Assembly: GCA_002482775.1 (NCBI GenBank) | Contig: DLGQ01000079.1 | Location: forward strand, 29,149-93,148 | DNA length: 64,000 nt | Origin: Flavobacteriales bacterium UBA7690 | GTDB taxonomy: Bacteria; Bacteroidota; Bacteroidia; Flavobacteriales_F; PHOS-HE28 | Direction: 5' to 3' | In this document: positions 6,982 to 18,194 of the stretch, piece by piece | Position numbering within the stretch: the stretch's first letter is position 1 | Layout of the letters: every line of letters starts with the position of its first letter | Notes under the pieces: model-generated | What the model was told of the DNA's origin: nothing | Database searches by the model: none | The model's input: the letters and a program-made list of their open reading frames with translations, nothing else | Translations under genes and position numbers: made by a program

Positions 6982-8127
<1,146 letters not shown>

Positions 8128-8136
8128 TTAGTCCTG

Positions 8137-8997
8137 TTACTGTGCGGTGACCACTTCTTCCACATCGAATGCCAGTGAACTCGAAAGCTCGCGATACGCC
8201 TCGATCTGCGCCTTCAGGTCGGCGATCTTCTGCTCCACGCCCGCCATGGCATCCGCTCCGGCGATGAAGCGACGCGGCGGTTGCGCCTCTGCGATGAGGG
8301 TCATCAGCGCCTGCGCCAACTTGGCGGGATCGCCGATCTGCTGGCCGTTCTGCGCATTCCAGTAGTCCATCGTGGGCTGGCGGCGATCGTCGTAGTCCGC
8401 TACGGAAGCCGCAGCGTAGTTGGTGCTCTGCTCCGTGAGCAGCTCCGTGCGGAAGAAGCCCGGGTTCACCACGGTGGTGTGGATGCCGAAGGGCGCGATC
8501 TCCACAGCGAGCGACTCCATCCAACCTTCGAGTCCGAATTTGGCGGCTGCATAGGCCGTCACGAAGTCGAAGCCCGCGACAAGTCCTGCCGACGAGGAGA
8601 TGGACACGATGTGCCCCGCGCGTTGCTTGCGCATCACGGGCAGCACCGCACGCGTCACGTTCATAGGGCCGATGAGGCTCGTGCTCAGCTGCTGGTCCAT
8701 CTGCTTCGGCGTGAGCTCCTCGAAGTAGCCCGCGTAGAAGTTCGCCGCGTTGTTGATCAGCACGTCGATGCGCCCGAAGCGGTCCACGGCGGCCTTCACG
8801 GCTTGCTGTGCCTCTTCCGGTGATGTGATGTCCAGCTTCACAGCCAGCAATTCCTTCGCCTCGCCCAGGGCGCTCTTCACGGCGACCGTGTTGCGGCCGG
8901 TGGCCACCACGGCGTGCCCCGCTTCCAGTGCGGCCTTGGCGATGTACGTTCCCAGGCCTCGTCCGGCACCGGTGATCATGATGACTTTGCGTTCCAT
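8137..8997 (-). CDS. SDR family oxidoreductase
   Basis: Rossmann motif TGAGRGLG at the N-terminus, NNAA, and the classical SDR YAAAK catalytic motif. It lies 21 nt upstream of the AKR gene. Confidence 0.9.
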   Translation of the reverse strand: MERKVIMITGAGRGLGTYIAKAALEAGHAVVATGRNTVAVKSALGEAKELLAVKLDITSPEEAQQAVKAAVDRFGRIDVLINNAANFYAGYFEELTPKQMDQQLSTSLIGPMNVTRAVLPVMRKQRAGHIVSISSSAGLVAGFDFVTAYAAAKFGLEGWMESLAVEIAPFGIHTTVVNPGFFRTELLTEQSTNYAAASVADYDDRRQPTMDYWNAQNGQQIGDPAKLAQALMTLIAEAQPPRRFIAGADAMAGVEQKIADLKAQIEAYRELSSSLAFDVEEVVTAQ

Positions 8998-9031
8998 TCT
9001 GTTGTGCGGTTAGTGATCGTTCCTTCGGGTA

Positions 9032-9097
9032 CAAAGGGACGCGAGCCATGGCCCGTGATCACTTGCGGAACGCGCCATTGTACTTGCGGATGGCGCC
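9032..9097 (-). promoter_or_regulatory. Operator/promoter module S1 upstream of the SDR-AKR operon
   Basis: A 37-nt element (9061..9097, ACTTGCGGAACGCGCCATTGTACTTGCGGATGGCGCC) carries CTTGCGGA twice in 21-nt phase. It is followed by exactly 25 nt and then CAAA (TTTG on the gene strand). The same architecture occurs at 15129..15194 and 17963..18028. Confidence 0.55.
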
Positions 9098-9100
9098 AGG

Positions 9101-9192
9101 GGGGCGCCCCTCACAAAGCCTCGGGTCGGGCTATCCGCAGTGGTCCTCATCGCAGAGCCTCGCTGTGGGCATCTCACCTCCATCCCTCACCC
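9101..9192 (-). repeat. Intergenic repeat family, copy D (inverted orientation, most degenerate)
   Basis: The reverse complement aligns with copies A, B and C: GGGTGAGGGAT..AGGTGA..GCCCACAGCG ... CGGATAGCCCGACCC ... GGGGCGCCC. Confidence 0.45.
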
Positions 9193-9326
9193 AGATAAGC
9201 GCATTCATCGACATGAAGTGATTGATCACGCCCTACAAAAAGCCGTCGGTCGAATGGTGTACAGATGTGGACAACCCCCGTACCCTGACACTCGTCTATG
9301 TTGTCGGATAGCGTACCTTCGACCTC

Positions 9327-9947
9327 ATGGATCAGAAGACCCAAATGGACCTCAAAGGTCTCGCCTTCATTCGGTCACACGTTCGACATACCGGTCGAAC
9401 ACCATCGCTGCGGCAGATAGGCAGTGCGATCGGTTACGACTCCCCCCGCTCCGTGCAGTTGATGCTGGAGCGGTTGTCGAAGCGTGGACTGCTGAAGTAC
9501 AAAGATGGGGTCATCAAAGTTTCAACTAAGGCCAGCGACCCCGTTGAGCATACCGTCGACGTACCTCTTGTTGGTTCAGTAGCGTGCGGCCTGCCGACAC
9601 TTGCGCAGCAGGACGCTGAGGCCTGGGTGAGCATCTCAACGCGCATCGCCCGCCCCGGACACACCTATTTTCTACTGCGCGCCGACGGAAAATCCATGGA
9701 CAAGTCTGGTATCCAGGACGGCGACCTCGTGCTTATCAAGCAGCAGGCGATCGCAGATCAAGGTGAACGGGTGGTCGCATTGGTCGATGAATCCGCGACG
9801 ATCAAGCACTTTCATCGAAGTGGCGATCACGTGCTCCTGAAACCGAACTCCAGCGACAAAAACTGCAAACCGATCGTGGTGACCGATGACCTAGCGATAC
9901 AGGGTGTCGTTGTCGCCGTAATCCCCGATCCTTTTTCTGACCAATAA
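9327..9947 (+). CDS. LexA/UmuD-type S24 self-cleaving repressor (winged-helix DNA-binding domain plus S24 peptidase)
   Basis: N-terminal LexA-like wHTH (GRTPSLRQIGSAIGYDSPRSVQLMLERLSKRGLL). Scissile-site-like VACG, Ser in ADGKSM and Lys in ATIKHF. It sits 14 nt upstream of the CD-NTase on the same strand. Confidence 0.85.
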   Translation: MDQKTQMDLKGLAFIRSHVRHTGRTPSLRQIGSAIGYDSPRSVQLMLERLSKRGLLKYKDGVIKVSTKASDPVEHTVDVPLVGSVACGLPTLAQQDAEAWVSISTRIARPGHTYFLLRADGKSMDKSGIQDGDLVLIKQQAIADQGERVVALVDESATIKHFHRSGDHVLLKPNSSDKNCKPIVVTDDLAIQGVVVAVIPDPFSDQ

Positions 9948-9961
9948 CACCGCGATACAGC

Positions 9962-10945
9962 ATGCCTACTGCAACATTGATCGATCCGCCCATCGCACAC
10001 GCGGATGTGCGCCAGTTCGCTGAGGATAGGGTGAACTTGCCGGCGGAGACCGCCAAGGACCGCCGGGAGAAAGTCAACGACCTGCGTGAAAAGCTCGGTC
10101 GATGGATGACCGACCATCCTGACTGCGGTATCGTCAAGTCCTACCTATCCGGAAGCCTGGCCAAGGGAACGGCGCTGAGGACGTCGAGCGATGTCGACGT
10201 CGCCTTGTACATACGCTATGACGGCGAACGGAAGGCGGACCGTCAACTGGCGGAGTGGATCGCTGAGCGCCTGCGCAAAGCCTATCCGCAGATGAATCCT
10301 GACCAGATCATCCCGCAGGAGCACGCGGTAAAGATCATTTATAAAACGGCGGGCATCGAGATCGACATCGTGCCCGTGTTCTATGAGGATGATCCGGACG
10401 ATAAGGGTTGGCTTGTCTCGAAGTCGTCTGGCAGGCTCATGCTCACGAGCATCCCCATGCACCTCGCCTTCACCCGTAAACGCAAAGCGAAACAGCCGAC
10501 GCACTTCGCGCAGGTCGTCCGCTTGGCGAAGTGGTGGCGCGATGAGCAGAAGGCCAGCAACGCCAACTTCAGGCTCAAGTCCTTCATGATAGAGATGATC
10601 TGTGCTCACTTGGCTGATGGCGGGTTGGACATGTCAGACTATCGGCGGGGCCTGGAGGCTTTCTTCGGCTACATCGTCCGCACTGGTCTGAAGCAGCGCA
10701 TCGCCTTCACCGACTACTACGGGCTGGACGAGCTACCGAAGGATGTGAAGGATCCGATCCAGATTTTCGACCCGGTGAACCCCAAGAACAATGTTGCCTG
10801 CCGTTATACTGAAGAGCAGCGGCGCACAATTGTTCAAGCAGCTGAAGATGCTCTTGATGCGCTGAACGAGGCGCACACAGCGGCTACCAAAGGCCGCGCC
10901 TTACCAATGTGGCAGGAAGTACTAGGCAGTTCATTCCGTGGATAA
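9962..10945 (+). CDS. cdnC: CBASS cGAS/DncV-like nucleotidyltransferase (CD-NTase); CdnC-like is inferred from the operon type
   Basis: Pol-beta NTase motifs GSLAKGTALRTSSDVDVALY and IEIDIVPV. Size is 327 aa. It is followed by HORMA, TRIP13 and NucC genes. Confidence 0.8.
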   Translation: MPTATLIDPPIAHADVRQFAEDRVNLPAETAKDRREKVNDLREKLGRWMTDHPDCGIVKSYLSGSLAKGTALRTSSDVDVALYIRYDGERKADRQLAEWIAERLRKAYPQMNPDQIIPQEHAVKIIYKTAGIEIDIVPVFYEDDPDDKGWLVSKSSGRLMLTSIPMHLAFTRKRKAKQPTHFAQVVRLAKWWRDEQKASNANFRLKSFMIEMICAHLADGGLDMSDYRRGLEAFFGYIVRTGLKQRIAFTDYYGLDELPKDVKDPIQIFDPVNPKNNVACRYTEEQRRTIVQAAEDALDALNEAHTAATKGRALPMWQEVLGSSFRG

Positions 10946-10947
10946 CC

Positions 10948-11451
10948 ATGACGAACAGTTACACAACAACAGAGACCTGGTCTAGGACCCATGCCCGTCA
11001 TGTCGGCGGCAAGGTGATTGTCGACCTAAGGGGCTTGGCACAGGAGTACCGATCTCCTTCTGAGCAGGATCTTGAAGCATACCTACAGGAACTGGTCGAA
11101 CTGCTGACCGGCAGCTACATCAAGGAGGTGAGCTACGGGTTCGAGCGGAACAGCGTTCCGATCGTCGCCATGAAGTACACCGCCGACATGAACGGGACGT
11201 TGACCGCGGATGATCGATCGGGACGGATACCTCGTGGGGTTGACATCACCGGCGCAGTGTTCTTCACGTTCCTGTCCTACAGTTCGAAGTGGTGGTCACT
11301 GGCACCCGAACAGCGAGAGCGTATCAAGGCGGGCTTGATCGTGAAGCGGAGCGTTGGATCAGATCCGTGCAGCGGATTGGTTGGCTGGACCAGTGACAAG
11401 ACCTACAGCTCTGCCGGTAATGGGATGCAGAGATCAACCTACGGCAATTGA
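10948..11451 (+). CDS. cap7: Bacterial HORMA-domain protein (CBASS Cap7)
   Basis: 167 aa. TWSRTHARHVGGKVIVDLRGL, EVSYGFE, FFTFLSYSSKW and DKTYSSAG match the pattern I recall for E. coli MS115-1 HORMA. The ATG lies 2 nt after the CD-NTase stop. Confidence 0.8.
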   Translation: MTNSYTTTETWSRTHARHVGGKVIVDLRGLAQEYRSPSEQDLEAYLQELVELLTGSYIKEVSYGFERNSVPIVAMKYTADMNGTLTADDRSGRIPRGVDITGAVFFTFLSYSSKWWSLAPEQRERIKAGLIVKRSVGSDPCSGLVGWTSDKTYSSAGNGMQRSTYGN

Positions 11452-11453
11452 AA

Positions 11454-12407
11454 ATGAATACGATCGACACCTTCGAGGACGTAGTAGTTCTGCCGGACGA
11501 ACGAGGTCAACGTATTTACGACAGGCTTGTTGGCCTCGATGACTATAAGGAGCGGTTGGTCAAGGAAGTGCTCCTTCTGCTTGACCCTGCACAACTCCAC
11601 AGCTGGAACAAAGAGCACCATCAAGGAAAACTCGCCGCAGTGGAGATGTTCACGTCTCGCCCACCACTCTTCGTGTTGGCGGGCGATGTTGGTACGGGCA
11701 AGACGGCGCTGGCAAGATCGTTCGGCAACGAGGTTGCCAAGCGATCAAAGGTGCGGATTGAATTGCGCGCCCTTAGCCTCAGCAGCCGTGGATCTGGTGC
11801 CGTGGGCGAGATGACCAAGCTCATCACAGGAGCCTTTAAGCAGGTTCGAGATTCAGTAGCACAGACGCGCGGTGAGGGCGGTAAGGCTGGCCGGGGCATC
11901 ATCCTGTTGATCGACGAAGCCGATGCACTCGCACAGTCAAGAGAAGCGGCGCAGATGCACCACGAGGACAGGGCGGGCGTGAATGCTCTCATCCGCGGCA
12001 TCGATGAACTGGCGGCTGCCCATTTGCCGGTAGCTGTGATCATGTGCACCAATAGGCTCAATGCACTGGACCCTGCAGTACGTCGTCGAGCTGCGGTCGT
12101 TTTCGAATTCCACCGACCCAACAAGGAGCAGCGCCTTGCTGTGCTCAAGGATGCCCTCGTCGGGAGTGGACTTACCGTTGGTGACCTTGAAGAACTAGCG
12201 GCCGCAACGGGACGCACGAATGATCGGCTGTATGGCTTCACGTACTCTGATCTCTCACAGCGCCTTATTCCATCGCTGGTGCTCGATGCGTTTCCATCAA
12301 AGCCCATCACGTCCGCAGGGATGCGTCGTGTTATTGGTGCAATAGAACCTACACCTCCATTTGAAGATCAGAGCCATGCTACAAGAACCGTTGACGTCCA
12401 CCAGTAG
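11454..12407 (+). CDS. cap6: TRIP13/Pch2-like AAA+ ATPase (CBASS Cap6)
   Basis: Walker A GDVGTGKT, Walker B ILLIDEADAL and an Arg-rich sensor RRRAAVVFEF. The ATG at 11454 lies 2 nt after the HORMA stop (the track start at 11448 is TTG). Confidence 0.85.
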   Translation: MNTIDTFEDVVVLPDERGQRIYDRLVGLDDYKERLVKEVLLLLDPAQLHSWNKEHHQGKLAAVEMFTSRPPLFVLAGDVGTGKTALARSFGNEVAKRSKVRIELRALSLSSRGSGAVGEMTKLITGAFKQVRDSVAQTRGEGGKAGRGIILLIDEADALAQSREAAQMHHEDRAGVNALIRGIDELAAAHLPVAVIMCTNRLNALDPAVRRRAAVVFEFHRPNKEQRLAVLKDALVGSGLTVGDLEELAAATGRTNDRLYGFTYSDLSQRLIPSLVLDAFPSKPITSAGMRRVIGAIEPTPPFEDQSHATRTVDVHQ

Positions 12408-13149
12408 TGCACCCACGCTGTCGAAATTGTTCCGTGGTCTCCACAGAACACTCGAAACCCAACTCGGCATTGCGCGGGATACGGTCGACCATGCCGCTAC
12501 CCTAGGAGCATTATCCGAAGACAAGTGGATTTCAGTCCTCAGGGAGCATCTACCGAAGCGATACAAGGTCAGCCGGGCGTTCGTCATCGACTCCAGGGGA
12601 GGGTGTAGTCGGCAGATCGATACTGTCATCCATGACCGACAATACTCGCCGTTCGTCCTGAATCTGGGAGGTGCTCTCTACGTGCCTGCGGAAAGCGTGT
12701 ATGCTGTCTTGGAGATCAAGCAGAACCTTAATGCCGAGCAGATAGCGGATGCCGTCCTCAAGGTGGCAAGCGTTCGATGCCTCCACCGTACCAGCCTTCC
12801 TGTTCCGACAATAGACGGCCTGAGACCTGCCAAGGAACCCCATCATATCGTTGGCGGCATCGTTGCATTGGAGAGTGACTGGACGCCACCTTTCGGAGCG
12901 CCTTTCATGGACGCCATCGCACTGACTGATTTGACTGGTCGCCTGGACATGGGCTGTGCCGTGCGCGATGGTGTCTTCCAAGCGAAGTACCCCGAAGGGC
13001 AGGTACCGGAGTTGGTTGCAGAAGAATCGGACGCAGCTCTCGCGCTGTTCTTGTTGCGGTTGATCGCGAGACTACAGGCGATGGCGACAGTCCCTCAACT
13101 TGATGTTGCCGCATATGCGGACAGCATCACGCGAACCAGGGTCATATAG
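12376..13149 (+). CDS. nucC: NucC endonuclease (cyclic-trinucleotide-activated CBASS effector)
   Basis: PD-(D/E)xK motifs QIDTVIHDRQYSPF and YAVLEIKQ, plus VASVRCLHRTSLP, LESDWTPPFG and RLDMGCAV, as in characterised NucC. It overlaps the TRIP13 gene end by 32 nt. Confidence 0.85.
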   Translation: MLQEPLTSTSSAPTLSKLFRGLHRTLETQLGIARDTVDHAATLGALSEDKWISVLREHLPKRYKVSRAFVIDSRGGCSRQIDTVIHDRQYSPFVLNLGGALYVPAESVYAVLEIKQNLNAEQIADAVLKVASVRCLHRTSLPVPTIDGLRPAKEPHHIVGGIVALESDWTPPFGAPFMDAIALTDLTGRLDMGCAVRDGVFQAKYPEGQVPELVAEESDAALALFLLRLIARLQAMATVPQLDVAAYADSITRTRVI

Positions 13150-13264
13150 GCCCTGAGACACCCGTTACTGGGTGAACGTTACCGCAGGGCGCTATACCCG
13201 GCTTTTTGAATGTCGCCTTCGTAGGACGGGTCAAGCATATCTTCGAGCACCAAACAGCAACAGA

Positions 13265-13528
13265 ATGGATCAGTACTTGAAAGGAACGACCACTTGGGGC
13301 CCTTCTCTCCAAGATGCTTACGTGAAGGTGAGCTATGATGAGGCAGCGGATATGACATACGCCGACCAGAAGATCCAAAGAGTAACCAAGGTCGTATGCG
13401 GCTTGCTACACGCCGAGGATGGAGATGCCGTGGAGAAGGTTGTTGCTTGGTTGAAGAGCAATAAGTTCAGTGAGTGTTCACCGGAAGAGTATGATGCCCT
13501 CGCGTGCGACGTCTACAGAGAATTCTGA
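13265..13528 (+). CDS. Small hypothetical protein (87 aa) at the distal end of the CBASS island
   Basis: The ATG at 13265 lies inside a GTG-started track ORF. It is acidic with no recognisable motif, looks like the lowest-G+C stretch by eye, and is followed by a hairpin at 13533..13551. Confidence 0.4.
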   Translation: MDQYLKGTTTWGPSLQDAYVKVSYDEAADMTYADQKIQRVTKVVCGLLHAEDGDAVEKVVAWLKSNKFSECSPEEYDALACDVYREF

Positions 13529-13562
13529 GGCTCTGACGGTCTGCCGGTCAGCACCGCATTTC

Positions 13563-13652
13563 GCGTGACGGATTGGAGCGGCACCCCGCAGCGCGGTAAT
13601 CCGCGCGAGGAGTACAGCGGAAAGCCGGACCCCGGCCGCATTTGGGCCGGGG
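13563..13652 (+). repeat. Intergenic repeat family, copy A
   Basis: GCGTGACGGAT..AGCG..CCCCGCA, hairpin GCGCGG-TAAT-CCGCGC, GGAGTACAGCGGAAAGCCGGA, hairpin CCCCGGCC-GCATTTG-GGCCGGGG, then CACGCCCA. It aligns with copy B. Confidence 0.55.
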
Positions 13653-13676
13653 GCACGCCCACATCATTCACCTACT

Positions 13677-14678
13677 TCACGCCACCGCCCGGTGTTGCAT
13701 CCGCCATTCCCCCGGCGTAACGCCTTCCCAGTTGTTGAAGGCGCGGAAGAAGGAGTTGGCATCGGCGTAGCCGAGCAGGTAGGCGGTCTCGTTCAGTTCC
13801 ACAGCGCTTTGGCTGAGGTAGTGGTGCGCGAGTTCGCGGCGCGTTTCCTCCACCACTTGTTGGAAGGTGATGCGGGCATCGGCCAGCTTGCGTTGGAGCG
13901 ATCGCGTGCTCATGCCCACCTCGCTGGCGACATGGTGCAAGGTGGGGCGCTTGCCGGCGAGCGAGCGTTTGAGGGCGTGCTTCACCTGTGCCCCCACATC
14001 GGCGCCTGCCTTGCGCTCTGCGACCTGCGCATCCAGTTGGCCGCTTACCATGGCGAGCAGTTCGGCGTTGTGCGTGGTAAGGGGCATGTCCAGATCCGTG
14101 GTGCGGAACACGATGGCGTTGCGTTCGGCCTTGAAGGTGACGCGGCAGCCGTAGTACTTCTCCAGGAGTTCGCGGTGCCTGGTGGGGCGCACCAGTTCCA
14201 CGCGCACCGGTGCGATGCGGCCATCGGTACCGCGCCCGCCGATGGTGTGGATCCACGAGAGGCAATTGTCCACCAGCACATCGGGTTCGCTTTCGGTGGC
14301 GTTGGTGAACACGAATTCTATGGCGGTCTCCCTGCCCTGTGGGCGCAGGTTGATCTCCTCCGGGCACACGAGCTGCTTGTAGCGGCCCATGCGTTCCACG
14401 GCATCGCCGAAGGTGCGGCTGCACACGGCAGCGATGGCCGTGGGGTTGAAGCGTTCCAACTTGTACTCCGCGCTGAGCTTGAGGCCGATCGCAGGGTCCT
14501 TGCTCACCTCACCCACCGCGCGCCAGAAGGCGAAGAGCTGTGCGGTGTCCACCTGTGGCTTTTCCTGTTGGAACAGGCCTGGTGGTAGTCCGGCGCTGCG
14601 CAGCACCTCGGCCGGAGGTACCTTGTGGTCCTTCAGGCTTTGCGCGAAGGTGCTGGCGAGGCGGAAGCGGTCGGTCAT
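13677..14678 (-). CDS. AraC family transcriptional regulator with an N-terminal AraC-type ligand-binding-like domain
   Basis: C-terminal double HTH (TRSLQRKLADARITFQQVVEETRRELAHHYL...ETAYLLGYADANSFFRAFNNWEGVTPGEWR). The start was trimmed to the ATG at 14678 (MTDRFRLAS). Confidence 0.9.
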   Translation of the reverse strand: MTDRFRLASTFAQSLKDHKVPPAEVLRSAGLPPGLFQQEKPQVDTAQLFAFWRAVGEVSKDPAIGLKLSAEYKLERFNPTAIAAVCSRTFGDAVERMGRYKQLVCPEEINLRPQGRETAIEFVFTNATESEPDVLVDNCLSWIHTIGGRGTDGRIAPVRVELVRPTRHRELLEKYYGCRVTFKAERNAIVFRTTDLDMPLTTHNAELLAMVSGQLDAQVAERKAGADVGAQVKHALKRSLAGKRPTLHHVASEVGMSTRSLQRKLADARITFQQVVEETRRELAHHYLSQSAVELNETAYLLGYADANSFFRAFNNWEGVTPGEWRMQHRAVA

Positions 14679-15128: not shown

Positions 15129-15194
15129 CAAAGTGACAGTACCAAGGTAATTCCCTCACTCGCAGAACGCGCCGATCTACTTGCGGATGGCGCC
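15129..15194 (-). promoter_or_regulatory. Operator/promoter module S2 upstream of the 142-aa ORF and AraC gene
   Basis: 15158..15194 (ACTCGCAGAACGCGCCGATCTACTTGCGGATGGCGCC) has 5 mismatches to S1. It is followed by 25 nt and then CAAA. On the gene strand TTTG is followed by CACCC and then the ATG. Confidence 0.55.
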
Positions 15195-15218
15195 AGTGCA
15201 AGCGGCCTGTGCGTCAGC

Positions 15219-15320
15219 GCGTGACGGATCGCAGCGTAAACCCCGCAAGCCCGGTAATCCGGGCGCGGAGTTGCAGCGAAGAGCCGGACCCTTGCTGCGT
15301 TTGAGCAAGGGGCACGCCCA
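15219..15320 (+). repeat. Intergenic repeat family, copy B
   Basis: It has the same backbone as copy A. Both hairpins carry compensatory changes (GCCCGG-TAAT-CCGGGC and CCCTTGCT-GCGTTTG-AGCAAGGG). Confidence 0.55.
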
Positions 15321-15422: not shown

Positions 15423-16832
15423 ATGAACGAGATCATTTGCCCGCATTGCAACAAGGCCTTCAAGATCGATGAGGCGGGGTACGCGGACATCCTGAAGCAG
15501 GTGCGCGACCAGGAGTTCGAGAAGACGCTGCATGAGCGGCTGGTGCTCGCCGAGCAGGAGAAGCGCACGGCCATTGAGCTGGCGGAGGCCAAGGTGAAGA
15601 ACAGGCTGGATACGGAGGCGGCGAAGAAGGATGTGGAGATCGAGAAGTTGAGGTCGGCGTTGCAAGCGGCCGATGTGGCGAAGCAGGTGGCGCTGAAGGA
15701 TGCGCTGGGCGCGGTGGAGAAGGAGCGCGATGGGCTGGCGAACGAGCTGGAACGGGTGAAGCAGGCGAAGTTGAGCGATGCGCAGTTGGCGAAGGAGAAG
15801 TTGGAGAACGAACTGCAACGGACGGCGGCGGCGAAGGAGGCGGAGATCCAGAAGTTGCAGGCTACGTTGGATGCGCTGGGGGTGACGCAGAAGCTCGCCA
15901 TCAACGAGGCGGTGGGTGCGGTGGAGAGGGAGCGCGATGCACTGAAGAACGGGATCGAGCGTGTGCAGCTGGAGAAGCAGTTGGCGGAAACGTCGCTGAA
16001 GGAGCGCTACGAAACGCAGATCAAGGACCGCGACGATGCGATCGAGCGCTTGAAGGATATGAAGGCGCGGCTGTCCACAAAGATGCTGGGCGAAACGCTG
16101 GAGCAGCATTGCGAGGTAGAGTTCGAGCGGATCCGGGCGACGGCGTTCCCCAAGGCGTATTTCGAAAAAGACAACGACGCGCGGACGGGTAGCAAGGGCG
16201 ACTTCATCTTCCGCGATACGGATGAGGCGGGCACCGAGGTGGTGTCGATCATGTTCGAGATGAAGAACGAGAACGACGACACGGCGACGAAGAAGAAGAA
16301 CGAGGATTTCCTAAAAGAGCTGGACAAGGATCGTATGGAGAAGGGCTGCGAATACGCAGTGCTGGTCACGTTGCTGGAACCGGACAACGACCTGTACAAC
16401 GGCGGCATTGTGGACGTGAGCCACCGCTACCCGAAGATGTACGTGGTGCGGCCGCAGTTCTTCATCCCCATCATTACGCTGCTGCGGAACGCGGCGCAGA
16501 ATTCACTGAAGTACAAGAGCGAGCTGGCGCTGGTGAAGGCGCAGAACCTCGACATCACGAATTTCGAGAACGAGCTGGAGGCCTTCAAGAGCGCGTTCGG
16601 CCGGAACTACGACCTAGCAACACGACATTTCCAGGACGCAGTGGATGAGATCGACAAGTCCATCAAACATCTGCAGAAGACGAAGGACGCACTGCTGGGA
16701 ACGGACCGCAACCTGCGCCTCGCGAACGACAAGGCCCAGGACGTAACGATCAAGAAGCTAACGCGCAAGAACCCGACGATGGCTGCGAAGTTCGAGGAGG
16801 TGAAGAAGGTGGGTGCTGCTGGTGGGGAATGA
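15423..16832 (+). CDS. DUF2130-like protein: N-terminal Cys ribbon, long coiled coil and a C-terminal PD-(D/E)xK-like module
   Basis: [29 protein letters not shown] is the start I associate with DUF2130. It has an E/K/A-rich coiled coil of about 200 aa and the motif GDFIFRD...[10 protein letters not shown]. Confidence 0.75.
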
Positions 16833-17962: not shown

Positions 17963-18028
17963 CAAAGGGACGACATTAGGAGGTCTTCCCGACTTGCGGA
18001 ACGCGCCAATGTGCTTGCGGATGATGAC
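17963..18028 (-). promoter_or_regulatory. Operator/promoter module S3 upstream of the alcohol dehydrogenase
   Basis: 17992..18028 (ACTTGCGGAACGCGCCAATGTGCTTGCGGATGATGAC) has 5 mismatches to S1. It is followed by 25 nt and then CAAA. On the gene strand TTTG-CACCC-ATG. Confidence 0.55.
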
Positions 18029-18060
18029 AGGGGTTGTTGGTTGAACGCAAGCTGCATTCC

Positions 18061-18194
18061 GCGTTAGGGATAAAAGTGAAAAGCCCGCAAGCGACCCCGG
18101 CTCTTAGGCCGGGGGTGCGCGGACTTGGAACGGATAGCCCGACGGCGGCGCTTTTGGACGCCGGAACCTGCCTACCGGCAGGCAGGCGCCCAAC
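18061..18194 (+). repeat. Intergenic repeat family, copy C (longer, with an extra hairpin)
   Basis: GCGTTAGGGAT..AGTGAAAAGCCCGCAAGC, hairpin CCCCGGC-TCTTAG-GCCGGGG, GCGCGGACTTGGAACGGATAGCCCGAC, hairpin CGGCG-CTTTTGGA-CGCCG, extra hairpin CCTGCC-TACC-GGCAGG, then GCGCCCAACC. Confidence 0.5.

Follow-up and report, generated by a model that had tools for sequence, protein, structure and literature searches.

How toxic abortive-infection systems are silenced, and then released, is an open question, and it is raised here by a locus in the Flavobacteriales bacterium UBA7690. In the 64,000-nucleotide (nt) stretch that we analyzed (contig DLGQ01000079.1, positions 29,149 to 93,148 of the forward strand; hereafter the window), a LexA-type gene, g1, stands at the head of five packed genes, and the four that follow (g2 to g5) encode a complete Type III cyclic oligonucleotide-based antiphage signaling system (CBASS). 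Does g1 control the immune genes behind it, and by what signal? The best reading of the sequence, and in our judgment a fairly probable one, is that g1 encodes an autoregulated repressor, probably cleavable through the RecA filament (RecA*), that gates CBASS expression.

g1 and the CBASS operon

Every sequence and structure test that we ran places g1 in the LexA family. It matches the Pfam profiles LexA_DNA_bind (PF01726; 1.6e-11, residues 10 to 61) and Peptidase_S24 (PF00717; 8.8e-24), and it scores 150.9 bits against the NCBIfam lexA equivalog TIGR00498, whose cutoff is 110.95. It aligned to E. coli LexA structures across residues 13 to 199, with Cys87-Gly88 falling on E. coli Ala84-Gly85, Ser123 on Ser119, and Lys160 on Lys156. 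None of these four g1 residues varies among 52 aligned relatives, which argues that self-cleavage is under selection. The top Foldseek matches of the AlphaFold 2 model (predicted local distance difference test score, 77) were to full-length LexA (3K2Z, 1.8e-16, and the LexA-DNA complex 3JSP), which ranked above UmuD and the lambda and 186 repressors; the C-domain of the model superposes on the RecA-bound LexA structures 8TRG and 8GMS. An initial annotation of this DNA had described a LexA-like winged helix joined to an S24 peptidase with Cys-Gly, Ser, and Lys, a description borne out by profiles, alignment, and structure prediction. g1 is the sole S24 gene in the window.

The genes behind g1 form a complete Type III CBASS, consisting of a CD-NTase, a HORMA and TRIP13 pair, and a NucC effector, each of which aligns over its full length to its counterpart in the Type III CBASS of E. 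coli MS115-1. g2 matches the PADLOC cyclase profile PDLC00808 (1.5e-125), NCBIfam NF041116 (CBASS_cyclase_a, 406 bits), and MS115-1 CdnC (6P80; 6.5e-91, residues 11 to 327), and its translation has GSLAKGT and DVDV, in agreement with the GS...DxD active site of CD-NTases, as well as IDIV. g3 matches bacHORMA_1 (PF18138, 3.7e-44, Pfam) and MS115-1 HORMA (6P8V_H, 5.8e-31); g4 matches PADLOC TRIP13 (1.2e-120), Rhizobiales Pch2 (6PB3, 4.8e-97), and MS115-1 6P8V_A (2.1e-88), with GDVGTGKT as Walker A and LLIDEAD as Walker B; and g5 matches the PADLOC NucC effector PDLC00745 (1.8e-85) and MS115-1 NucC (6P7O, 1.3e-58), with the motifs QIDTVIHD and LEIKQ. The Pfam, PADLOC, and NCBIfam searches thus agree with the identities first proposed, and all of the motifs quoted in that proposal, including GSVACGLP, ADGKSM, and ATIKHF in g1, are present in the translations.

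The five genes lie on one strand, separated by 14 nt (g1-g2), 2 nt (g2-g3), and 2 nt (g3-g4), with a 32-nt overlap of g4 and g5; terminator-like matches were at chance level, with none between g1 and g2. Their coordinates, gaps, and overlap were given exactly in the initial annotation: independent gene calls on the identical public contig returned the same five open reading frames (ORFs). The final 380 nt of the 9196 to 13528 interval contain one further small ORF, which is acidic; it matched nothing in Pfam, PADLOC, or NCBIfam, and none of the fetched loci has a homologue of it.

The linkage of lexA to the cyclase gene has been kept over time. In L086, a metagenome contig of 1 kb, the repeat, the region upstream of lexA, lexA itself, and the beginning of the CD-NTase gene are arranged as in the window; the contig is 83% identical to the window in DNA and 96% identical in LexA protein, and the junction of lexA and the CD-NTase gene is 15 nt there and 14 nt in the window. 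Comparison of the two lexA genes gave a synonymous divergence (dS) of 0.86 and a nonsynonymous divergence (dN) of 0.024, and the resulting dN/dS of 0.028 at this dS indicates strong purifying selection on lexA.

A candidate operator and a proposed mechanism

A conserved 30-nt box lies 25 to 60 nt 5' of lexA in every member of the g1 clade with upstream sequence, regardless of cargo. The block A.GT.TACA...GTGGACAACC...GTAC (9256 to 9285 in the window) is shared by six clade members whose flanks and cargo are unrelated, and the window has a single exact copy of the 9-mer GTGGACAAC, which in all clade loci lies directly upstream of lexA. No repair genes were seen beside the box in the window. The interval between the −35 and −10 hexamers is the classic position for a repressor, and in two further clade loci (L002 and L004), where the box overlaps these hexamers, its core lies between TTGACA and TATAAT. 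The wider family has the same upstream architecture with TATACA-type elements (for example, ATACAGCATTATACACTTTGTAT), and box and recognition helix vary together: the helix SPRSVQLML pairs with GTGKACA/GTGGACA boxes, including in the Uhrbacteria member L008, and SPRSA[SA]L pairs with TATACA boxes. This covariation is the best available evidence, and it makes the box a candidate cognate operator; g1 probably binds 9256 to 9285 in its own promoter and so would regulate itself. A second conserved block (9289 to 9319) contains a GTAC element at 9313 to 9316 and ends in RYGTACCTT just 5' of the lexA ATG; it may be a promoter, 5' untranslated region, or second operator.

Three upstream sites had been proposed in the initial annotation, and all are where it placed them, but only TGT-N10-ACA (9258 to 9273) falls within the family-wide box. 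The palindrome GTGAT-TG-ATCAC (9218 to 9229) is partly kept in L086 and absent in other family members, and we rejected it as the family operator; the proposed "−7 box," TATGTTGT (9297 to 9304), is identical in L086 only.

In the model that we favor, g1 bound to the 9256 to 9285 box would keep the lexA-cdnC-HORMA-TRIP13-nucC transcript low. Single-stranded DNA arising from DNA damage or from phage replication or recombination would lead to RecA filaments, which would stimulate g1 self-cleavage at Cys87-Gly88 via the Ser123/Lys160 dyad; cleavage would derepress the operon and raise the level of the CBASS proteins. Since the repressor would be cotranscribed with its cargo, fresh repressor would re-silence the operon, and the same-strand layout predicts a pulse-like induction with a built-in shutoff. 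The working order of the MS115-1 CBASS is established, and the immune step would follow it: HORMA would license the cyclase, TRIP13 would reset it, and a cyclic trinucleotide would activate NucC, leading to DNA destruction. More speculatively, DNA damaged by NucC might promote further RecA activation and so hold the response on by positive feedback. DNA binding, cotranscription, RecA dependence, and induction are parts of this model that we infer from sequence. The original proposal that an S24 repressor heads the CBASS operon as its regulator gains support at that level from the box/helix covariation, the dN/dS of 0.03, and the recurrent linkage to defense genes described below.

Several points weigh against this model. 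The 9256 to 9285 box is not a clean palindrome. A scan found no σ70 site in 8900 to 13800, and inspection by eye found no Bacteroidota −33 TTG/−7 TAnnTTTG promoter in 9196 to 9326; g2 may have an internal promoter within the g1 coding sequence. In a view limited to 64 kb, g1 may control other genes as well, or the host may lack another SOS regulator. Finally, the window is without the small extra gene seen in many relatives, and the module may work differently between members.

g1 could also repress without sensing RecA, either as a constitutive damper or insulator or in response to another trigger, such as a phage protein, Lon/Clp, or small partner proteins. The DUF2188 or 66- to 68-amino-acid (aa) gene that many relatives add beside lexA hints at extra inputs of this kind, and CapW-mediated induction is reported to be dispensable for anti-phage activity (PMC9122588), so that induction is possibly not the point of such regulators. 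Nevertheless, the invariance of Cys-Gly, Ser, and Lys across the 52 relatives and the superposition of the C-domain on RecA-bound LexA make repression uncoupled from RecA unlikely.

LexA homologues, their cargo, and the insertion site

About 970 database relatives of g1 (58 to 96% identity, all about 204 aa) come from metagenome-assembled genomes (MAGs) labeled Flavobacteriales, Patescibacteria, Paceibacterota, and others. Among species-representative genomes, a scan yielded at least 80 loci at 33 to 58% identity, and a metagenome scan with the single g1 protein yielded two; the same single-protein query found none in a viral scan, and the family alignment found six distant viral matches. In the window's clade, defense-type, defense-candidate, or mobile-element-linked genes lie directly 3' of lexA on the same strand wherever downstream sequence was fetched (Table 1). 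The lexA homologues of this clade lead CBASS and further defense operons across many phyla.

We counted downstream families in 57 loci (L006 to L054, which are 49 genome-scan loci at 40 to 58% identity, together with two viral loci and six that had been fetched before) by chaining same-strand downstream ORFs, which gave 148 proteins. SMODS/CD-NTase genes were found in 13 of the approximately 57 loci. The commonest families were SMODS (11), DUF2188 (9), and ThsB_TIR (6), followed by Cap15, ThiF, and caspase (3 each) and by SAVED, AGS_C, patatin, SLATT_4, and TIR_2 (2 each); genuine SOS genes were few (IMS, 3; RecA, 2). The first 20 genome-scan loci by LexA similarity rank with at least two same-strand downstream ORFs, a sample not selected by cargo, were annotated locus by locus, and defense or conflict cargo was present in 16 to 18 of them; no recognizable cargo was seen in one (L030). 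Over all loci with LexA genes of this kind, the window included, the cargos encompass CBASS (types I, II, and III), PD-T7-4, SIR2, TIR/Thoeris-like, TIR-caspase, E1/E2, and restriction-modification systems. When the window's HORMA, TRIP13, and NucC were compared by phmmer with all ORFs of the fetched loci, only the window's own copies matched; the exact Type III combination is unique to the window in this sample. By Pfam, L009 has a CD-NTase together with a HORMA protein.

Table 1. Features of the window and of loci with g1 homologues
Sequence	Positions	Strand	Feature	Basis or remarks
Window	9327..9947	+	g1, LexA-type repressor, 206 aa	LexA winged helix, Cys87-Gly88 linker, S24 domain with Ser123/Lys160
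Window	9962..10945	+	g2, CD-NTase, CdnC-like	Profile and solved-structure matches
Window	10948..11451	+	g3, bacterial HORMA (family 1)	PF18138
Window	11454..12407	+	g4, TRIP13/Pch2 AAA+ ATPase	PADLOC TRIP13
Window	12376..13149	+	g5, NucC endonuclease effector	PADLOC PDLC00745
Window	9256..9285	+	Conserved operator-like box GGTGTACAGATGTGGACAACCCCCGTACCC	Three GTAC/GGAC half-site-like elements ~10-11 nt apart
Window	9289..9319	+	Second upstream block (..TCGTCTATGTTGTC..GCGTACCTT)	Conserved in window, L086, L087, L001, L095, L096
Window	13265..13528	+	Small acidic ORF, 87 aa (118 aa from GTG at 13172)	Within island, after nucC
Window	9100..9194	-	Left boundary, ~95-nt structured repeat, Flavo-1-like	Inverted copy of 13558-13661; blastn of relatives
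Window	13558..13661	+	Right boundary, Flavo-1-like repeat	Just 3' of convergent AraC gene; Rfam RF01705
Window	13677..14678	-	AraC-family regulator	Flanking host gene, synteny anchor; convergent with island
Window	8137..8997	-	Short-chain dehydrogenase	Flanking host gene; then aldo-keto reductase 6982-8115
Window	13558-13635, 15212-15294, 18058-18148	+	Sister copies of ~95-nt repeat	Flavo-1 25-35 bits (gathering 42)
Window	9061-9102, 15158-15199, 17992-18033		Tandem direct repeat ACTTGCGGA-N12-ACTTGCGGA	
Window	15423-16832		DUF2130 gene	2.8e-90; between AraC and alcohol dehydrogenase genes
L001, L087			lexA, then SLATT and SMODS	
L007			lexA, then CD-NTase, E2, and SAVED effector	
L104	4134-5034, 7001-10368		lexA, then SAVED and SMODS	See text
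L102	7633-10674		lexA, then caspase fused to HamB-like helicase, methylase, PDDEXK	Positions of the fusion gene
L095			lexA, then 68-aa protein and DUF4145/PD-T7-4	
L004			lexA, then 67-aa protein, PDC-M48B, and 229-aa protein	
L100			lexA, then 66-aa and 328-aa proteins	Within an element like an integrative and conjugative element (ICE-like)
L002			lexA, then small proteins	Adjoining Tn7-like element
L007, L009 (with HORMA), L010 (patatin/E1-E2/JAB), L012, L016, L019, L026, L032			CBASS-like sets	8 of 20 rank-ordered loci
L008, L023, L024, L031			TIR or TIR-caspase sets	4 of 20 rank-ordered loci
L021			SIR2	
L014			Restriction-modification	
L018, L029			E1/E2 or ubiquitin-like systems	
L011 (lone Dam methylase), L015 (DUF5677)			Ambiguous cargo	
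L027			Genuine umuD-umuC-SRAP cassette	
L001	6370-6573		Small gene beside lexA	
L087	7051-7254		Small gene beside lexA	
L095	957-1160		Small gene beside lexA	
L019	10623-10826		Small gene beside lexA	
L004	8623-8823		Small gene beside lexA	
L100	7622-7819		Small gene beside lexA	
L098	9098-14937		Slot between AraC and aldo-keto reductase	See text
L009	947-3549		lexA, CD-NTase, bacHORMA_1, membrane protein	Saccharibacteria MAG; contig ends soon after

It is quite possible, although we offer the idea tentatively, that g1 belongs to a large unnamed class of Cys-Gly canonical-type LexA proteins that lead interchangeable immune cassettes and wire the RecA filament to abortive-infection expression; such a class would range over Bacteroidota, Patescibacteria/candidate phyla radiation (CPR), Nitrospirota, and other mostly uncultured lineages. 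In many homologues a small protein lies between lexA and the cargo, either DUF2188 (the PADLOC candidate PDC-S16) or an unannotated protein of 66 to 68 aa; a small gene comes first after lexA in L008, L013, L024, L026, L032, L033, L035, L039, and L050. These small proteins may serve the regulatory module as its second part.

Some individual loci deserve mention in their own right. L009 is a LexA-led HORMA-type CBASS in an ultrasmall episymbiont, and a near-identical LexA in L012 precedes Cap15. The 1,013-aa product directly after lexA in L102 joins a caspase (Peptidase_C14) to a Hachiman HamB-like DEAD-box helicase, a domain combination that we did not recognize. In the Paceibacterota locus L104, the LexA, SAVED, and SMODS genes lie 2 kb from a serine recombinase and a divergent HTH_3 and Peptidase_M78 pair that is CapH/CapP- or ImmR/ImmA-like; with both present, this small island has two proteolytic repressor systems.

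Could g1 be the host's general SOS repressor, with a genome-wide regulon and a CBASS that landed downstream by chance? It does score above the NCBIfam lexA equivalog cutoff, and within the broad family there is a Bacteroidales subclade that leads umuDC/IMS cassettes. Near-identical LexA proteins of the CPR clade, with an identical upstream neighbor, precede different cargo (for example, L009 versus L012), which fits a fixed lexA beside a variable slot. In a neighbor-joining tree, however, the umuDC/IMS-linked Bacteroidales LexA proteins form their own clade, distinct from the window's clade, and the window's clade and the CPR clade are defense linked. Moreover, the box is single in 64 kb, and complete Bacteroidetes genomes are reported to have no canonical LexA, with SOS controlled by CI-like helix-turn-helix (HTH) plus S24 proteins (PMC8565304). 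Relatives also lack lexA at the insertion site described next. We consider a general SOS role with chance linkage improbable, and even if it were true, the CBASS would still be under LexA control.

As a separate observation, five Bacteroidales/Bacteroidota MAG loci (L022, L027, L043, L044, and L046) encode canonical-type LexA proteins of a separate clade, with GTGTAT-N4-GTGTAT boxes upstream and, in those with identified cargo (L022, L027, and L044), umuD-umuC-SRAP or IMS downstream. This clade is at odds with the reported phylum-wide absence of canonical LexA.

The interval 9195 to 13561 (4.4 kb) is a defense cassette within a variable genomic site. Its GC content is 0.56 to 0.57, versus 0.62 in the flanks (host GC, ~59%). 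The host is a member of the Bacteroidota, as judged from window proteins with type IX secretion system sorting domains, a SusC/RagA-type receptor, and an MSEP-CTERM protein, from a flanking gene whose closest named relatives are in Flavobacteriales MAGs, and from Flavo-1-like repeats. Relatives whose AraC neighbors are 76 to 96% identical carry other genes at the equivalent site, and lexA is absent there. In the MAG L098 (AraC 76% identical, DNA 80%), the interval between the AraC and aldo-keto reductase genes holds HEPN_AbiV and SocA_Panacea, followed by a 115-aa gene, and a 1,183-aa SIR2 protein (SIR2_2); in L099 (95% DNA identity over the AraC region), the repeat is followed by a different gene again. 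Because the relatives differ in content, we regard the AraC-flanked site as a variable, defense-loaded slot, with lexA part of the variation. The initial annotation had itself named a single housekeeping lexA, fixed at this site in relatives without CBASS, as what would overturn its proposal, and the relatives show otherwise.

Residence in a variable slot also raises the idea that g1 is a CI/SetR-like immunity repressor of a decayed mobile element or prophage, its true targets lost and the CBASS a passenger. Homologues do occur near such elements: L100 has a serine recombinase, TrwB, a relaxase, and an integrase; L002 adjoins a Tn7-like element; L004 has a terminase and methylases; and L088 to L090 are IMG/VR contigs. 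However, the 4.4-kb island has no recombinase or phage gene, on which ground the prophage-repressor reading was rejected; repressors of the clade directly precede same-strand defense-type, defense-candidate, or mobile-element-linked genes; and g1 is closer in fold and sequence to LexA than to CI or 186 repressors. An origin of this sort is very improbable, and control of the CBASS by g1 remains the reading that we favor.

Copies of the boundary repeat stand where genes end, and they flank the lexA-CBASS island as well as a DUF2130 insertion; such copies may be sites of recombination or insertion. Against RF01705 (Flavo-1), the right-hand repeat scores 33.2 bits (E, 5e-4) and the sister copies of the left-hand one score 33 to 35 bits, below the gathering threshold of 42; the right-hand repeat folds at −51 kcal/mol (z, −1.9) and is kept after AraC in L097, L098, and L099; five aligned copies of the ~95-nt repeat have 73% mean column identity. 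The tandem ACTTGCGGA repeat lies 5' of the minus-strand dehydrogenase gene (8997), the AraC gene, and a zinc alcohol dehydrogenase gene (17957), and also before their L098 homologues; it has the look of an operator for the AraC-family regulator, defining a small oxidoreductase regulon. We rejected the ~90-nt repeats as transposon ends, since they comprise Flavo-1-like repeats and this tandem promoter element of oxidoreductase genes. The DUF2130 gene contains a 194-nt direct repeat (15577 to 15770 and 15784 to 15977, 71% identical) and is a second insertion beside the CBASS island because the AraC and alcohol dehydrogenase genes are adjacent in L098.

Comparison with known systems

The locus looks like an apparently undescribed way of tying bacterial immunity to DNA damage. 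Our literature search turned up no paper that connects LexA or S24 with CBASS, SMODS, or defense operons, in line with the initial suggestion that a RecA*-cleavable repressor heading CBASS, as a functional analogue of CapH/CapP, had not been described; a prior mention may exist. The 2026 papers on CapK/CapS (PMC13373217) and CapP do not mention LexA. If the model is true, the list of defense regulators would gain the classical SOS switch, in the form of a LexA module made of one protein coupled to RecA, and with it a further family beside CapW, CapH/CapP, and CapK/CapS; such a module would also explain canonical-type LexA genes in Bacteroidota and CPR genomes that have no known SOS role. One repressor, one box, and one well-understood CBASS make a simple, transplantable test case, and guilt by association would offer a route to new defense genes, such as those for the unannotated 66- to 68-aa, 229-aa, and 328-aa proteins after these LexA genes.

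Self-regulated LexA-led cassettes are known from Pseudomonas and Xanthomonas, in the form of lexA2-imuA-imuB-dnaE2. g1 resembles canonical LexA and the lexA2 cassettes in its architecture and catalytic residues and in being first in its operon; these are autoregulated and damage inducible, which for g1 is only proposed. It differs from them in its cargo, which is abortive-infection immunity rather than repair or mutagenesis, and from canonical LexA in its Cys-Gly site (as in UmuD), in a candidate operator unlike CTGT-N8-ACAG, and in a host phylum reported to be without canonical LexA. Sanchez-Osuna et al. (2021) found no canonical LexA in any of the complete Bacteroidetes genomes, all of which they searched, and showed that the SOS regulators of the phylum are S24 proteins whose N-domain is of the CI type and which bind CTAA-N5-TTAG or GGA-N5-TCC (PMC8565304). 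Those repressors share the S24 domain and the phylum of g1, but they control repair genes, whereas g1 has a LexA-type winged helix and neither operator motif occurs in 9196 to 9326.

Three families that regulate such immune operons have been characterized, all of them responsive to DNA damage; the initial annotation listed CapW and CapH/CapP but omitted CapK/CapS (PMC13373217). Like CapW/BrxR (winged HTH-WYL-WCX; CBASS and BREX), g1 is a repressor encoded with CBASS and, among its relatives, with other, varied defense cargos. CapW/BrxR occupies the promoter of its operon until a DNA damage signal (single-stranded DNA) releases it, and we propose the same for g1. Unlike CapW/BrxR, g1 has no WYL or WCX domain (its Pfam domains are LexA_DNA_bind and Peptidase_S24 only, and it has no PADLOC match), its proposed release is by irreversible self-cleavage rather than ligand binding, and its gene opens the operon instead of forming a unit of its own upstream.

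In CapH/CapP (an HTH protein and an M78 metallopeptidase activated by single-stranded DNA, with DdrO/IrrE and ImmR/ImmA as relatives), damage-driven proteolysis of a repressor likewise switches on CBASS and other immune operons. DUF2188 has been reported beside CapH/CapP, and association with DUF2188 and with ubiquitin-like systems is common to CapH/CapP and this LexA family. But CapH/CapP comprises two proteins encoded upstream on the opposite strand, whereas g1 is one polypeptide on the same strand as its operon; the gene upstream of g1 encodes a dehydrogenase, not one of a divergent XRE-HTH and M78 pair. The g1 peptidase is a serine-lysine S24 enzyme whose presumed sensor is the host RecA filament, and CapP is an M78 metallopeptidase-GAF protein. 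CapK/CapS, a DNA damage-activated kinase and a repressor (PMC13373217), works by phosphorylation and not proteolysis, and its families are unrelated to g1. By domain content, then, g1 is outside the CapW, CapH/CapP, and CapK/CapS families, whose defining domains are absent from it. The immune genes themselves are those of a familiar system: the Type III CBASS of E. coli MS115-1 (CdnC-HORMA-Trip13-NucC) has the same gene order, and what sets the window apart is the LexA-type gene that precedes its CBASS and the Bacteroidota host.

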